Source of the DNA: an uncultured Methanosarcinaceae archaeon
GTDB lineage: Archaea > Halobacteriota > Methanosarcinia > Methanosarcinales > Methanosarcinaceae
NCBI GenBank assembly: GCA_963727895.1
Contig: CAVSHT010000005.1
Span: 224,001-288,000, forward strand
Length of the DNA stretch: 64,000 nt
Direction: 5' to 3'
The translations under genes and the position numbers were made by a program. Position 1 is the first letter of the stretch. Each line of letters starts with the position of its first letter. The notes beneath the pieces were generated by a model. It saw only the letters and a program-made list of their open reading frames with translations, did not search any database and had not been told where the DNA came from. Below, in pieces: positions 15,183 to 21,636 of this stretch.

Positions 15183-15434
15183 AGCTCACATAACTTGAGA
15201 TTTATTGAAGCTTAATTGAAGACACCTTATCCAGATATTATAAAAAATGTGTATAGGCTTGAGATATAATTTGGTTAAGATTAAAATCCTACTCAAGCCT
15301 AAAAATAAAACTGAATTTAAGCTTAACAAACAACTTTAATCGAAGCTTATAATATCTAATCAAAGCCTAATTAAAAGACTTGTATTAAATTAATTCAACT
15401 TAAATAAAAGCCAAATAGTATGCGGGGTTTTTTC

Positions 15435-17070
15435 ATGAAAGCTTCAGATCTTTTTGTTGCCCAGTTAGAAGAAGAAGGCGTTGAATATATTTTTGGACTA
15501 CCTGGTGAAGAAAACCTTGACCTTCTTGAGTCCCTAAGAACTTCCAGAATCAAATTGATAATAACAAGGCATGAGCAAGCCGCAGCATTTATGGCTACAA
15601 CATATGGAAGGCTGACAGGAAAGCCAGGCGTCTGTTTTTCAACGCTTGGACCTGGAGCTACAAATCTAGTTACAGGCGTTGCTCAGGCACAGCTTATAGG
15701 AGCTCCTCTTGTTTCCATATCAGGACAAAAAGCTCTCGTTGACAACTGGCAGGCTCGTTTTCAGTTAGTAGACATTGTCAGGATGATGGAGCCGCTCTGT
15801 AAAAACGCTGTATCCATTACCGATCCTGGAATGATTCCCACAGTAATCCGCAACGCTTTCAAGCATGCGGAAGCTGAAAGACCAGGAGCCATACATATTG
15901 AACTTCCTGAAGATATAGCTGAAGAAGAGACGGACACGGTAGTGCAGAAGAGGGGCGATGTTAAAATCCCTTATCCGAATCTAGAATCTGTTAAAAAAGC
16001 CGCTAATATGATTTGTGATGCTAAAAATCCCCTGATAATGGTTTCCTCAGGTGCAAACCGGAAAGCAATCAATGATGCACTTGAGAGATTTTGTGGAGAG
16101 AACAGGCATTTATCTGGTGCATACCCAGATGGGGAAAGGAGTTATTCCAGATGACTGCATTTATAGCCTTTTTGCTACAGGGATTCATGCAAGGGACTAT
16201 GTTAACTGTGGAATTGATGGGGCTGACCTCATAATCACTATTGGATATGATATAGTGGAATATCCTCCCTACCTGTGGAACAAGACGCTTGATAAGCAGA
16301 TCATAAATATTGATTTCGTAGAATCTGTACCTGATAGATACTTTAATCCCATCGTAGAAATAATTGGGGATGTAGCCGTTTCAATAAGGGAACTTGCTGC
16401 ATGTATTCCAGAAAAACGTGAGTTTCCTATCTTTGAAAACACCAGACGTTTCATTGAGGAAAAAATAAATCCTGTAGTTAAGAAAAGTTATCCTCCTATC
16501 CCACAGGCTGTAGTTCAGAGTGTAAGAAAGGTGCTTGGAAGGGAAGATATAATCACTCTGGATAACGGGATTTATAAACTGTGGTTTGCTCGTCTTTACA
16601 AAACTTATGCTCCTAATACTATTATCCTTGACAATGCCCTTGCAGCTATGGGTTCAGGGCTTCCAGCAGGAATCACTGCAAAACTTCTTTATCCTGAACG
16701 TCGTGTGCTTGCAATATGTGGGGATGGAGGGTTCATGATGAACTGCCAGGAACTTGAAACCGCAGTACGCTATGGAATCCATGTTGTTGTTCTTATACTC
16801 AATGACAACGGTTTCGGTTTTATTAAATGGAAGCAAAAAAAGATGAATTTTGAAGATTTTGGACTGGACTACGGAAATCCTGATTTTTCTCTCTTTGCTA
16901 AGAGTTTTGGAGCTGCTGGTTTCAAGATCATGGAAGAGGACGATCTTGAAGAAGTTCTAGAGAGAGCTTTTTCACTGAATAAGGCAGTAGTTATCGAGTG
17001 TCCTATTGACTATTCCGTGAATTATGAAACTTTTTCAATAGAACTGGGAAAGCTTACATGTATATTCTAA
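15435..17070 (+). pseudogene. Acetolactate synthase large subunit-like ThDP enzyme, +1 frameshift at T run 16089-16092
   Basis: RHEQAAAF and TLGPGATN in ORF1; GDGGFMM...NDN in ORF2; removing one T restores LERFVERTG. Confidence 0.85.
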
Positions 17071-17248
17071 TTAGCATGCAAATTTGACTGGAAAGCTGGA
17101 CTTGCAGATTAATGTTCTTTACAAGTTATACCCCTTCAACGTAAAGTCCTAGAGGATGTAATTTGGATGTAAAAAATAATGTAGAGAACTTGATCTCATG
17201 TCATAAATGTATAATGTGAATATAAAGTTATAATTCGTACCCAGCATT

Positions 17249-17324
<76 letters not shown>

Positions 17325-17523
17325 TAAAACGTAGTAATTCTATTTTGTCCCTTAATCTTCTCATGAACTATAATGGGAGTTAATGAGAATTCAACTTGAA
17401 AGTGTAACGTCTGGAAGTAAAAAACTGTTTAAAATTATTTGAAATATTGAGCAATTAACTATTGAATTAAACAGGGTCAATTTTGAAGTAGAGTCATTTT
17501 CTGCTTGATCCTAATTTTATGAG

Positions 17524-17679
17524 TAAAACTTATATAATTTGACTGAATAGTAAAAACATTAAAAATAAAGAGATGTATAATCTGTTATTAAAAACTAGTT
17601 TCTGTTTTTAATCAAAGAGCAATACACAACCTTATTTTTAAAATAGTTACTATCCGTTGTAAGCGGAGGTGAAAAGAAA
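17524..17679 (+). promoter_or_regulatory. TATA box plus conserved structured 5' leader of a CxxC-x17-CxxC gene
   Basis: TTATATAA at about 17530; long imperfect hairpin 17560-17640; SD-overlapping hairpin 17653-17667; homologous to 19665-19825. Confidence 0.6.
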
Positions 17680-17883
17680 ATGGCTTTTAATGACAGAGGT
17701 AACTCTTTCAGAGGAAGGGACAACAACCGGGGAGGTTTCGGAGCTCCCAGAGAAATGTTTAACGCGATCTGTTCAGACTGCGGTGCTGAAACTCAGGTAC
17801 CTTTCAGGCCTGACCCTGATAGACCAATATACTGCAGAGAGTGTCTTCCGAACCATAGGAAACCCAGAGAAAACAGATATTAA
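17680..17883 (+). CDS. CxxC-x17-CxxC zinc-ribbon protein with RG-rich N-terminus
   Basis: CSDCG...VPFRP...PIYCRECL; SD GGAGGTGA. Confidence 0.9.
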   Translation: MAFNDRGNSFRGRDNNRGGFGAPREMFNAICSDCGAETQVPFRPDPDRPIYCRECLPNHRKPRENRY

Positions 17884-18213
17884 TCTACCGGTTTGATTCT
17901 AAAAGTTTTTACTTTAATCCTTTATATGTCTGTTTAGTTTTGCTTGAGCAGACCAAACGGACCTCCTTCTTTTATAGTTTTTACATGCAATAGTATTGTG
18001 TTTTTAGCTCTGTACTATATTTAGAAGTTAGTTTAGAATTATTTCATGACTGCACAACCATAATTGAAAAAAACTAAAGGTAGTTAAATAGAGATACGAT
18101 AAGTGCGTGAAGAATTATATGGAAAAGGAGAAAAGGTTTTACCGAAAATTGGTTAAAACCAAAGTATATCAGGATAATATGATATTATTAATTTTACTTA
18201 TATTGTTTGGACC

Positions 18214-18558
18214 TTACTTTAAATACCCTTTTCTTTCAAGCCATTCAACTTGAGGTCTTGTGTATTTCCAGATTACATCTGCTTTAGAATCCTGGATTTC
18301 CCAAGGAGCGACGATTACTACATCTCCTTCGTGGATCCACATTTTCTTATTTTTAGAACCAGGAATACGACCCATTCGGACTATACCGTCCATACATTGC
18401 AATGTGACTCTTTTTGAACCTAAAAGGTTTCCTACGGTTGCCAAAACTTCATGGTTTTCTTTGCGTGGTGTACGTACTCTTGTTACTTCCTGAGTCGCAG
18501 GCATGGAATTTCCAGTCCCTGCTTTTTTCTTTCTTATATTGCTTCTATAGTTAGCCAG
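18214..18558 (-). CDS. eif1A: Translation initiation factor aIF-1A; probable CTG start at 18558, ATG alternative at 18504
   Basis: [41 protein letters not shown] precedes an in-frame CTG. Confidence 0.92.
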
Positions 18559-18934
18559 GTTAATTCCTCTAATATTATCAATTCATATCTTTATTTTTAT
18601 TAGTTAGTTATAATTTATAAGAAATTTAAGAATTTATGTGACTACATATAGTTTACATATTTTGACATTAAGGTTCGTAAAAGGATAATAGTTAAGGAAC
18701 TTTTCAGAAGAGATTATAATCTCTATAAATTCTGAATTTCAGAAAGCTTACATTTCAAAGATTTGTTGGAAAATTTTCAGTTATCATTTGATCCACATAC
18801 TGAACATTTACTTTAAAATTCTTTAGGATCTATTACAGCTTCAGATATGAAAAATATCTGTAAAAATTTTAAAGCATATTTTATAAATGCAGTAAAGTAT
18901 ACTTTATTTAAATCTAACTTCAACAGGCTTTAGT

Positions 18935-19137
18935 TTTGAAATTCCTGTAGCCAAACAGGCAATCTCTGCAATAAACTGGCCGACATTGTTGGTTTGAACA
19001 GACTTTAGTTTCAATACCAAGCTCAGAACTATAACCTTGTGCATTTCTAGATGGGCATTCTTGCAAACTTTGAAACTTCCATGGATGCTATTTCAATTGC
19101 CTCCATGATAGGAACTTCCTATGCCATTAAAACTTAT
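18935..19137 (-). pseudogene. Decayed third CxxC-x17-CxxC paralog
   Basis: Reads ISFNGIGSS..*..EMHKVI..GIETKV..FKP..RPVYCRDCL; start ATG->ATA, internal TGA, frameshifts; same leader core upstream. Confidence 0.8.
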
Positions 19138-19379
19138 TTTTGTTTAACCTTTGTAAGATAAAGGTACATATATTCGATAAATAATGATCGGATGCAACTA
19201 TTATTTAAAAACAAAAATGAGTTTTTAATAACAGATTATATGTTTCATCACTTTTACTGGATATATAAGTCTTCCAATGCTATATAAGATTAATCCAATA
19301 ACAAGCTGGGAACTATAAGCAACATCCTTCAGGATAATAATCTGTCATCAATTATACGCAAAAATAAAGAGAATTTGGA

Positions 19380-19399
19380 AACCTTTCTACAGAAAGGTT
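19380..19399. terminator. Inverted repeat downstream of the 19443-19664 gene
   Basis: AACCTTTCT-AC-AGAAAGGTT. Confidence 0.4.
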
Positions 19400-19442
19400 C
19401 CTATTAATATAATTATAATTGAAAATAATTGAATTTCGAAAT

Positions 19443-19664
19443 TTAGAACTTTCTGTGGTTTGGCAGGCAATCTCTACAGTAAACCGGTCTTCCCTCAGCT
19501 GGTTTGAATGGAACCTGTGTTTCTACACCACAGTCAGAACAAACTGCAGGGTACATTTCTGTGGGGCCGCTGTTGCCACCTCTAAAACCTCCGCGGTTAT
19601 TGTCTCTGTTTCCCCGGTTGCTGTCTCTTCCCCTGAAAGAGCTCCCTCTGTCATTAAAACTCAT
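19443..19664 (-). CDS. CxxC-x17-CxxC zinc-ribbon protein, paralog 2
   Basis: CSDCG...VPFKP...RPVYCRDCL; SD GGAGGTGA. Confidence 0.9.
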   Translation of the reverse strand: MSFNDRGSSFRGRDSNRGNRDNNRGGFRGGNSGPTEMYPAVCSDCGVETQVPFKPAEGRPVYCRDCLPNHRKF

Positions 19665-19825
19665 TCTCGTTTCACCTCCGCTTATAGCGGATTAGTCTAT
19701 GTTGCTATAAAAATAAGATCTATACATTCTTTTATTAAAAACAAAAATGAAGTTTTTAATAACAGATTATATGACTCTTTATTTTTACTGCCATTATTTC
19801 TCAAGCTTTTATTATATATAAATAT
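19665..19825 (-). promoter_or_regulatory. TATA box plus conserved structured 5' leader, second copy
   Basis: TTTATATATA at about 19812-19822; hairpin 19708-19787; SD hairpin 19677-19691. Confidence 0.6.
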
Positions 19826-19977
19826 ATCTGATTAATGCATAAAATTCCTACAACAGAAGCTGTAAAAAAATGCATAGAAATAATATATATAAATTTAAAA
19901 CTTTTTTTGAAAGTTGCCTGCTCAATTTTGAATTTTCAGCTCGATAAAAAATATATTGAAACCGAAGAAGTTAAAGT

Positions 19978-21636
19978 TTAATATTTAAACTTCAATTTCA
20001 TTCCACAGAAAGGACAAAAATTTGGGGTTGTGGAAATATTCAATTTTCGAGAGCAATATGGACAAATCAGTCTGATCCCTCTTTTTTCTCCAGGACTCAA
20101 GCTTTGATGGGCTCTTGATTCTTCGGCCTCCTCAACAGAAACTGAAAGTTCAAGTTCTTTAAGAGAGTTTATGCTATATATATCACATGAAATATTTGAA
20201 TCCTGATTTTGAGTTTCAGAATTATTGGACATCAGATGTTCTTTTAGAACAGATTTTGCATCAGAAGTTTCGACTTTATTTTGAAGGTTTACCAGCGATG
20301 GAGTAGTTTTATTAATCCTTTCTAAGGCTTTTAATGCAGTCCTTCGTATGCAAGCATCTGGACTTTCAGTAGCTTTAACAATTCCTGCAACTGCTTCTGA
20401 AGTTCCAATTTTTTCAAGCGAAGAAATGACTACTTTTTGCATAAGGCTTTCTGGAGTCTCAAGGATTCGGATCAGTTCCGGCACAGCCTGTTGCGCTTTG
20501 AGATCACCAAGTGTAGAAGCTGCAGCTTCTCTTACTACTGCTTTAGAATCATTAAGAGCTTTTAAAAGACCTGAGATCGCTAAAGGAGTACCGGCTTTAC
20601 CAAGAGCCACGACTGCAGATTCCCTTACTGAACTATCAGGATCATTAAGAGCTTTAACTAATCCTTCTATAGCTTCAGGAGTTCTGTTTTTTCCAAGAGC
20701 ACAGGTAATTGTTCTCCTTAATGAGTTTTCATAAGTCTCGAAAGCTTTAGTAAGTCCCATTGCGGCCTCAGGAGTGCCAATGTTTCCCAAGGCGTCTGCA
20801 GCTCGGCTTCTCAAATACCAGTCTGGATCATCAAGAGCTTTCAAAAGTCCTGAGACCGCCTCAGGCGTACCTATCTTCCAGAGAGTTTCAATTGATATTT
20901 TTCTCACATCTCTACTCGAAGCCCCTAGTGCTTTGACAAGTATAGGTACTGAAGTTGAGTCACTTAATATTTTGCAAAGTGTTTCGGAAGCAGCTTCTTG
21001 TACAGGCTGTCTTGGATCCTTGATAGTTTCCATCAATTCATCAAGTACGTCAATTTTTCCCCGTTTTCCCAGAGTTTCAGCAGCTTGTCGGCTTATTTTA
21101 TTATCCGGGTTTTCAATAGCTTTTACCAAGCAGATAGCAGCTTCGTAAGTATCAATTTTCCCAAGTGCTATTATTGAAATTCTTTTCAACGAATCATCCG
21201 GATAAGTCAAGGCTTTTTCAAGGCCATAAATAGCTTCTTGAGAACCTATTCTCATAAGGGATTTCACAGCTTCTTTCTGAACAAATTTATCTTTATCCCC
21301 AAATCCTTTAATAATACCTGAAATTGCCTCTGATGTGCTTATTTTTTCAAGAGAAGAGATTGCAGCCTTTTTAACAGGACTTTCAGAGTCATCAAGAGCT
21401 TTTATAAGACCGGGAACAGATTCTGGTAATTTAAATTTCCCAAGAGCTTCTGCAACGGCAATTCTTACCTTTGAACTTGAATCATCCAGCGCTTCAATAA
21501 GTGCAGGCAAAGAGGATGGATTTTCTAATTTTCCAAGTTCTTCGGCAGCAATTGCTCGATTTCCTGCAAAGACTGAATGTTTTAATTTTTTAATAAGATT
21601 CTTGATATTCTCATCCATTTCTCTTCTATCCCCCAT
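19978..21636 (-). CDS. HEAT (PBS lyase-like) repeat protein with C-terminal zinc ribbon
   Basis: Repeated LxxALxDxDxxVRxxAAxALGxxG units; CPYC...CPFC at C-terminus. Confidence 0.9.
   Translation of the reverse strand: MGDRREMDENIKNLIKKLKHSVFAGNRAIAAEELGKLENPSSLPALIEALDDSSSKVRIAVAEALGKFKLPESVPGLIKALDDSESPVKKAAISSLEKISTSEAISGIIKGFGDKDKFVQKEAVKSLMRIGSQEAIYGLEKALTYPDDSLKRISIIALGKIDTYEAAICLVKAIENPDNKISRQAAETLGKRGKIDVLDELMETIKDPRQPVQEAASETLCKILSDSTSVPILVKALGASSRDVRKISIETLWKIGTPEAVSGLLKALDDPDWYLRSRAADALGNIGTPEAAMGLTKAFETYENSLRRTITCALGKNRTPEAIEGLVKALNDPDSSVRESAVVALGKAGTPLAISGLLKALNDSKAVVREAAASTLGDLKAQQAVPELIRILETPESLMQKVVISSLEKIGTSEAVAGIVKATESPDACIRRTALKALERINKTTPSLVNLQNKVETSDAKSVLKEHLMSNNSETQNQDSNISCDIYSINSLKELELSVSVEEAEESRAHQSLSPGEKRGIRLICPYCSRKLNISTTPNFCPFCGMKLKFKY

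Follow-up and report, generated by a model that had tools for sequence, protein, structure and literature searches.

A conserved 5' leader hairpin of archaeal CxxC-x17-CxxC zinc-protein genes with a candidate caged antisense to the start codon

The stretch of DNA analysed here (the window) comprises 64,000 nucleotides (nt) from an uncultured Methanosarcinaceae archaeon (assembly GCA_963727895.1, contig CAVSHT010000005.1, positions 224,001 to 288,000). It contains three copies, all within 17530-19822, of a conserved and gene-specific element: a long AU-rich hairpin that begins at about the predicted transcription start (+1) and takes up the 5'-most ~85 nt of an mRNA leader of ~120 nt. The genes that follow it encode small RG-rich zinc proteins that carry the motif CxxC-x17-CxxC. 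The 5' arm and loop of the hairpin are also the reverse complement of the initiation region of the same mRNA, and the leader may be a two-state translational switch in which the hairpin cages an antisense to its own start codon, an interpretation that is given an even chance here.

A first-pass annotation of this DNA had proposed a conserved, structured and transcribed 5' leader specific to CxxC-x17-CxxC genes, and the distribution of the element, its folds and the RNA of a relative all bear this out. The antisense arm was missed at that stage, and likely shifts the mechanism from a hairpin as such to a hairpin that cages an internal antisense.

Leader copies and their genes

Copies A and B of the leader precede intact genes, and copy C precedes a decayed third paralog. 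The features are as follows.

17530..17537, + strand: TATA box of gene A, TTATATAA, with an A-rich stretch resembling a B recognition element (BRE) 5' of the box
17559..17641, + strand: leader hairpin copy A, with outer, middle and inner stems and an 8-nt loop; 84.9 bits with covariance model R1
17581..17603, + strand: copy A antisense to the initiation region (5' arm plus loop); best duplex within its own mRNA at -5..+19, -19.4 kcal/mol
17604..17618, + strand: 3' arm of the copy A inner stem, a degenerate look-alike of the coding start, predicted to cage the antisense
17654..17672, + strand: copy A mini-hairpin (CCGN-loop-GCGG), whose 3' arm takes in the first two G of the Shine-Dalgarno sequence GGAGGTGA (17665-17672)
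17675..17698, + strand: copy A initiation region and antisense target, comprising the spacer, the ATG at 17680 and codons 2-6 (A-F-N-D-R)
17680..17883, + strand: gene A, encoding a 67-residue RG-rich CxxC-x17-CxxC zinc protein
19815..19822, - strand: TATA box of gene B, from sequence reading and alignment
19704..19791, - strand: leader hairpin copy B, -22.0 kcal/mol, z -5.64; R1 83.9 bits
19743..19766, - strand: copy B antisense (5' arm plus loop), in which the loop CAU faces the AUG
19672..19690, - strand: copy B mini-hairpin and Shine-Dalgarno sequence, from the leader alignment
19443..19664, - strand: gene B, 73 residues, CxxC-x17-CxxC family; antisense target at 19646-19669
19172..19264, - strand: leader hairpin copy C, with an intact 5' arm and a decaying outer stem; R1 62.5 bits
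18920..19137, - strand: decayed third paralog, with ATG changed to ATA at 19137 and a remnant reading ...RPVYCRDCL...

The products of both intact genes score above the cut-offs of the corresponding domain models, with 72.2 (gene A) and 72.5 (gene B) bits for TIGR04272 (cut-off 36) and 67.9 and 67.5 bits for Pfam PF23477 (cut-off 27).

Fold, covariation and strand of the hairpin

Copies A, B and C each fold into one long imperfect hairpin. The predicted energies are -17.1 kcal/mol for copy A (z -3.82, 0 of 200 dinucleotide shuffles as good), -22.0 kcal/mol for copy B (z -5.64, 0 of 200) and -13.2 kcal/mol for copy C (z -3.25, 1 of 200). The single-hairpin fold is found in 77 of 78 distinct sequences, with a mean z of -4.2. 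The outer, middle and inner stems named in the first-pass annotation are present in these folds, and the alignment agrees with its claim of a core common to copies A and B that persists in copy C, upstream of the dead paralog.

For detection and annotation, a covariance model (R1; 94 positions, 31 pairs) was built from 38 sense copies with a hand-written structure, because RNAalifold on a plain MAFFT alignment recovered the apical stem alone or a portion of the rod, a shortfall explained by the middle stem, which uses two pairing registers in different paralog types. Pair counts on model-fitted alignments lean toward the hand-written structure, and it is with this reservation that 90.4% of the hairpin cells are paired in 80 distinct model-aligned copies, as compared with 44-54% when the partners are slid. 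Pairs (8,101), with UA 34, GU 25 and GC 2, and (19,92), with AU 57 and UA 20, covary, and wobbles are frequent, as at (10,99) with 22 GU and at (16,94) with 18 UG. The covariation within the hairpin is real but modest, and reflects few events between paralog types. The objection that AT-rich chance pairing might explain the stems is not borne out, as some of the variation preserves pairing and includes G-U wobbles that fit the sense RNA only.

Several observations support an element that acts as sense-strand RNA. Cells of the outer helix are G-U in 72 cases and A-C in 15. Over the whole structure the count (78 G-U against 61 A-C) has no discriminating power, because register shifts create false A-C cells and only the outer helix is clean. 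The sense strand folds more stably than its reverse in 54 of the 78 distinct sequences, and R1 gives 56.7-102.7 bits to sense copies and 31-40.7 bits to their reverse strands.

The loop is 8-10 nt long among the copies. In one relative (locus L029, 1265-1359) it is inverted, with AGAAATGAG in place of CTCATTTCT and the stems unchanged, as though the palindrome had flipped at the DNA level, and loop-to-AUG complementarity is lost in this copy. Between the hairpin and the gene, a GC mini-hairpin of 4 base pairs (bp), whose 3' arm overlaps the first two G of the Shine-Dalgarno sequence, is present in about 68 of 79 leaders. Its cells are paired in 85.5% of cases versus 22-67% when slid, and pair (121,127) is CG in 48 leaders, UG in 15 and UA in four. 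The remaining 11 leaders have an A-rich linker instead. A 12-codon upstream open reading frame (ORF) inside the copy A hairpin (17573-17611, ATG...TAA) was considered and rejected, as its ATG is ACG or CAT elsewhere and covaries as a stem base.

Distribution of the leader

In the 3.67-Mb assembly, the core 20-mer of the element has five exact occurrences and a sixth with a single mismatch. Searching for the cysteine motif gives seven intact paralogs, two on the contig of the window (C5) and five on another (C8). The leader precedes all seven, as well as one pseudogene, with eight R1 matches in total. The claim of the first-pass annotation that the leader is shared by all paralogs therefore holds in the source genome. 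It does not hold across the genus, in which one paralog type (loci L015-L017, MAFNDRGKPF...) lacks the element. These L015-L017 leaders have an apparent long-range stem of another kind, AGGACTTA/TAAGTCCT, around ~95 nt of leader.

R1 matches are found in 58 of 59 genomes of the genus, with 2-16 copies per genome. In a family-wide draw they are found in 33 of 34 genomes of genus g1, in both genomes of g12 and in all six of g23, and no match is detected in 108 genomes of 13 other genera, under stricter filters by which weak matches may be lost. The genus that carries the leader is very probably Methanosarcina, as the NCBIfam model takes its name from M. barkeri and, among the control genomes, the named M. 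acetivorans alone gives a match. The protein family is distributed more widely than the leader, as TIGR04272 members occur in 11 of 16 genera of the family (including 19 of 19 genomes in g14, 13 of 13 in g20 and 11 of 11 in g26) and in other families of the order. Of 93 distinct R1 matches, 81 have an intact CxxC-x17-CxxC ORF 31-45 nt downstream, six end at a locus edge after MAFND..., and six precede decayed copies.

Hairpins without a gene are also observed in relatives, at L041:2174-2267, L040:899-992 and L046:2057-2150 (78-84 bits). They retain the hairpin and the mini-hairpin, and the Shine-Dalgarno sequence and the ORF are gone. These could be leader-derived small RNAs that bear the start-codon antisense.

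No named RNA family corresponds to the leader, as the first-pass annotation had supposed: an Rfam 15 cmscan of 16500-20500, at E up to 10, returned four chance-level matches (E 7.7-9.4, 12.8-20.2 bits), all far below gathering scores and none on the three hairpins. No description of the leader was found in the full-text literature searched, which did not cover the supplements of the Methanosarcina mazei small-protein papers or older start-site tables from differential RNA sequencing (dRNA-seq). Two M. mazei small-protein papers are silent on it in their accessible parts, and the words 'UTR' (untranslated region) and 'cold' are absent from those of PMC12704099. According to the same parts of that paper, M. 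mazei has eight such small proteins, always detected at top confidence and of unknown function, of which two were purified and bind zinc (PMC12704099). The accessible portion of another paper describes sORF_06, a highly translated small ORF with four cysteines (PMC11456600), which may be a member of the CxxC-x17-CxxC family.

Promoter, transcription and ribosome-sized reads

The TATA box that the first-pass annotation had placed upstream of the hairpins is confirmed by an invariant TTATATA upstream of all eight copies in the source genome. In 62 of the 93 distinct matches the TATA box starts 22-23 nt before R1 position 1 and hence 29-30 nt ahead of the first paired base, so that transcription is predicted to start (+1) where the stem begins.

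RNA data are available for a relative of the same genus (G041), at a locus (L041) that holds the ortholog of gene A; four public runs were examined over region 1350-1950, which has the TATA box at 1478-1485, the beginning of the stem at ~1508 and the ATG at 1629. In run X9 the contig depth is 0 in all bins from 1350 to 1496 and 1,332 in the 21-nt bin that holds the predicted +1 (1497-1517). It is 15,078, 34,546 and 67,697 over the hairpin and reaches 126,284 in the coding sequence. Separate 60-nt contigs of this run, at 1534-1593 and 1565-1624, have a depth of 25,000. Since contigs cannot fix an RNA end and holes between them prove nothing, these data are taken to place the hairpin within a very abundant RNA and no further. 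The first-pass annotation had allowed that transcription might start downstream of the hairpin; this is not borne out, as contigs cover the L041 hairpin at depths of 15,000-67,000. The two-fold rise in depth over the hairpin is compatible with a second start or with 5' trimming. No support was found for premature termination at the T5 tracts of the 3' arm, as depth climbs along the L041 leader; short RNAs may escape such libraries.

In runs X22 and X23, raw reads with inserts of ~34 nt pile up with starts at 1611 (210 and 737 molecules) and ends at 1644, which corresponds to the Shine-Dalgarno sequence through ATG+15. This looks like initiating ribosomes on the annotated ATG.

Complementarity to the start region

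Together, the 5' arm, UCUGUUAUUAAAAAC, and the 8-10 nt of the loop (~23 nt in all) form the reverse complement of the initiation region of the same gene. Usually spanning -5 to +19, the target takes in a spacer portion of ~5 nt followed by the AUG and by codons 2-6 (A/S/G-F-N-D-R). When the ~23-nt arm and loop were compared with the linker and the whole coding sequence by RNAduplex, in 72 of the 81 units (nine were skipped by the search pattern), the best duplex covered codons 2-6 in all 72 and the start codon in 70. Its mean energy is -19.4 kcal/mol, with a z of -5.0 against shuffles, and z is below -3 in 71 of the 72. A scan of the copy A antisense against 216,552 forty-nt windows on contigs C1-C7 gave about four unrelated windows that reach -19.4 kcal/mol, besides the reverse strands of the element itself.

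A separate alignment of 79 full leaders, 66 from the genus and 13 from two sister genera, with identical rows and units with unusual starts dropped, was used to evaluate the long-range helix. This helix has 14 pairs, of which 98.4% of cells are paired as compared with 35-60% when slid. The inner helix of the hairpin, which is built by the same 5' arm, is paired to a lower extent (92.9%). Long-range pair (35,155) is AU in 67 leaders, GU in 10 and GC in two. Both G-C cases (L078 and L081) are synonymous AAT-to-AAC changes, in two genera and in different paralogs, where the arm already carried a G.

Within the target, codons 3-6 are invariant. Codon 3 is TTT in 78 of 78 cases, whereas phenylalanine elsewhere in these genes is encoded by 250 TTC and 23 TTT; codon 4 is AAT in 75 of 75, as against 304 AAC and 80 AAT elsewhere. 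Codon 5 is GAC in 77 of 77 and codon 6 is AGA in 76 of 76.

Conservation of the leader itself was compared with that of codon positions in the zinc domain, among the seven paralogs of the source genome. Identity at third codon positions has a mean of 0.52, and that between genes A and B (0.30) is at saturation, whereas positions 1 and 2 have a mean of 0.89. The 5' arm of the hairpin has a mean of 0.86, and of 0.92 between copies A and B; the loop (0.70) and the 3' arm (0.71) are lower. A 5' arm that is kept while synonymous sites are saturated is under selection, and is not a remnant of duplication. The difference between the arms is explained if the 5' arm must fit two partners, one of which is set by the protein sequence. 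In the same way, those 5'-arm bases that are unpaired in the hairpin are invariant yet pair with the start region, which would account for their invariance.

A different paralog type from other genera (MERRGF...; L091, L095, L096, L098 and L100) has a non-homologous leader in which GTTCAT...CCTCCC lies 65-95 nt upstream of the gene. The pairing partners of this sequence are the Shine-Dalgarno sequence (GGGAGG) and the start (ATGGA) of the same gene (z -1.0 to -4.0), and the pairing is part of the minimum-energy fold in all five. No start-masking pairing was detected at two more loci of this type, L018 and L031. Masking of the start region may recur in the CxxC-x17-CxxC gene family.

A two-state model of the leader

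In the model considered here, the hairpin would form first, during transcription, and would cage the antisense while the ribosome-binding region is left free and translation is on. The single-stranded loop, complementary to the spacer and AUG, would then serve as a toehold for a later strand exchange. In the refolded leader the antisense and the start region would form a duplex of 21-23 bp, by which initiation would be blocked. The ribosome footprint (-18 to +15) overlaps the antisense target (-5 to +19), so ribosome and antisense are expected to be mutually exclusive. Given the strong translation at normal temperature, which is seen in the L041 reads and in the proteomics of the accessible parts of PMC12704099, the open form should dominate on working mRNAs. 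The switch would instead act on idle or ageing transcripts, upon a change in temperature, or with a helper protein. Candidate triggers are temperature, the time since synthesis (a kinetic trap), and the RG-rich zinc protein itself, if it promotes refolding as a form of feedback.

For each state, 73 of the 81 units were folded from +1 to +75 of the coding sequence, with the apical stem imposed in one case and the long-range helix in the other. The energy of the hairpin form minus that of the refolded form is -0.17 kcal/mol at 15 C and rises with temperature, to +0.93 (25 C), +2.29 (37 C) and +3.29 (45 C). At 37 C, 51 of the 73 units have the refolded (closed) form as their minimum and 18 have the hairpin form. 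All that is taken from these calculations is that the two forms are predicted to compete and that cold is predicted to favour the open one.

A number of observations weigh against this model. The folding model has an error that covers energy differences of 0-3 kcal/mol, and a closed minimum in 51 of 73 units, set against strong translation at normal growth temperature, implies that the closed form may rarely form in cells. The RNA evidence is from the relative and not from the source organism, and in runs X22 and X23 the antisense arm of L041 has almost no footprint-like reads and no pile-up. In the long-range helix, eight of the 14 pairs never vary and only one pair has changed on both sides; when columns were shuffled as a control, 13 of 500 trials gave a covariation score as high. 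The loop pairs with its own spacer and AUG at -5.48 kcal/mol and with those of other copies at -4.91, and 52 of 5000 permutations are as good, in what is a weak test. All copies share a common ancestor, and the counts are therefore not independent. Homologues that lack the leader also lack such an antisense in the 27 loci examined (z -1.6 to +1.9; 11 from other families of the order plus the L015-L017 type, and 16 from seven other genera of the family), which leaves the design without independent replication. The complementarity could be the relic of an inverted duplication of the gene start, and the frozen AU-rich early codons could serve easy initiation instead.

A more elaborate version is doubtful, and is offered with little confidence: a bistable riboregulator that would make the translation of a whole paralog family of 2-16 members cold-favoured or limited to young transcripts, with gene-less hairpins (copy C and those of L040, L041 and L046) as trans-acting anti-start small RNAs and the zinc proteins catalysing refolding, thereby closing a feedback loop.

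Alternative explanations

The alternative that survives best, while still being unlikely, is a plain 5'-terminal stabiliser or expression enhancer that counters decay dependent on the 5' end, with the start-region match left over from the origin of the hairpin. A stem that begins 29-30 nt after the start of the TATA box, at about +1, in 62 of 93 matches is well placed for this, the hairpin is present in every copy, and both the mRNA (in L041) and the protein (in the accessible parts of PMC12704099) are very abundant. Pairing alone would suffice for stabilisation, however, and would not call for the features observed: conservation that is far higher in the 5' arm than in the 3' arm, invariant arm bases with no partner in the hairpin, loop complementarity to the spacer and AUG, and codons 3-6 frozen on otherwise rare codons. 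A mere relic, moreover, would not outlast the saturation of synonymous sites.

It is also possible, albeit improbable, that the invariant 5' arm is an RNA operator that binds a protein, possibly the RG-rich zinc-ribbon product, in a family-wide feedback that requires no refolding. The sequence conservation of this arm is on a par with that of codon positions 1 and 2, an element common to all paralogs would suit joint control, and the proteins bind zinc and look like nucleic-acid binders, as reported in the accessible sections of PMC12704099. Such an operator leaves the start-region match and the frozen codons unexplained. It is compatible with the two-state switch if the protein drives refolding.

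A DNA operator or cruciform, in which the palindrome downstream of the promoter would bind a dimeric transcription regulator, is very unlikely. It has in its favour the inverted repeat TTAAAAAC-N-GTTTTTAA near the promoter and the loop inversion in L029, which is an event at the DNA level. The centre of the repeat is, however, ~45 nt downstream of the predicted start, a conserved rod of 85 nt is too long for this role, and a loop of 8-10 nt that tolerates inversion does not behave as the centre of a dyad of fixed spacing. The excess of G-U over A-C cells in the outer helix, the better folding of the sense strand and the gap between R1 scores on the two strands (at least 56.7 versus at most 40.7 bits) also point away from DNA. 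Least probable of all, and barely credible, is a sequence with no function that recent gene duplication has simply copied: the paralogs are arranged in tandem, but they are old (identity of 0.52 at third positions, and 0.30 between A and B) while their 5' arms are 0.86-0.92 identical, and the element is kept in three genera.

Neighbouring sequence

An aIF-1A gene (18504-18214, - strand; NF003085, 168 bits) is located between genes A and B. In the relative, aIF-1A-like ORFs (L041, 345-662 and 2581-3036) likewise flank zinc-ribbon paralogs, and this neighbourhood hints at a link between these paralogs and translation initiation. Just 5' of the promoter region of gene A is an (AAT)n microsatellite of ~25 units (~17249-17325). 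Farther upstream, at 15420-17070, two overlapping ORFs of 244 and 339 residues lie in different frames. These look like the two halves of a single acetolactate-synthase-type thiamine-diphosphate enzyme, and their split could be a frameshift or an assembly error. Elsewhere in the source genome, a ~40-nt repeat (…AAAGAGATTGGAGAAGTGATGACAGATCACTGGAG…) is found at more than 30 places on contigs C3, C4 and C5 (including C3:27076, C4:141631 and C5:302071), and is probably one terminus of a mobile element.

Significance and comparison with known systems

The element is multi-copy and genus-wide, and is found on genes whose products are among the small proteins most strongly detected in Methanosarcina (PMC12704099, in its accessible parts). 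The host organisms are genetically tractable, which makes the two-state model directly testable. If the model is correct, the leader would provide a native and compact part for the control of translation in methanogens, and the zinc-ribbon proteins, whose genes adjoin aIF-1A genes, would be hinted to be dosage-sensitive factors linked to RNA. To our knowledge, natural cis-acting translational RNA switches have hardly been documented in methanogens.

Among the closest parallels is the leader of the maturation gene of phage MS2. In that RNA, an upstream complement of the initiation region is held in a local hairpin, a kinetic trap that delays the long-distance pairing while ribosomes load on the open start. 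The archaeal leader likewise has an upstream stretch that is complementary to the initiation region and is part of a local hairpin. It differs in that the target is the AUG and codons 2-6 of a family of cellular archaeal mRNAs, rather than the Shine-Dalgarno region of a phage RNA, and in that an 85-nt rod, known from sequence and folding and located at the extreme 5' end, would serve as the cage.

The cspA thermosensor of enterobacteria (RF01766) gates the start region by alternative folds, of which the open form is favoured in the cold. Like the cspA 5' UTR, the archaeal element is a long leader common to paralogs of a small, abundant protein, here a putative nucleic-acid binder, and its predicted response, open in the cold, has the same direction. 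It has no RF01766 match, its downstream genes belong to TIGR04272/PF23477 and not to the cold-shock domain family, and it is found in another domain of life.

Stabilising stem-loops such as that of Escherichia coli ompA require neither a specific sequence nor a match to the coding start. The leader resembles that of ompA in having a stem within a few bases of the mRNA 5' end (here a predicted one) on a very highly expressed gene, and differs from stabilisers of this type in matching its coding start. The mRNAs of the hok/sok type have complementary boxes upstream and downstream as well as metastable 5' hairpins; these hairpins, which arise during transcription, determine whether a long-range pairing can form and close translation. 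The metastable 5' hairpin predicted here would compete with a long-range closing pairing in a similar way, although the toxin mRNA, the 3' processing and the trans-acting antisense RNA of hok have no counterpart among the features seen here.

Thermometers of the ROSE and fourU classes are protein-free, melt open with heat and act locally on the Shine-Dalgarno sequence. In the archaeal leader, too, structure would control ribosome access, and the small GC hairpin overlaps two Shine-Dalgarno bases; its occluding sequence, however, is ~100 nt upstream, and the predicted direction of its temperature response is the opposite. The most likely mechanism of the leader, a caged antisense to the start codon, follows a logic known from phage and bacterial mRNAs, and it appears here in a new, genus-wide family of archaeal leaders.

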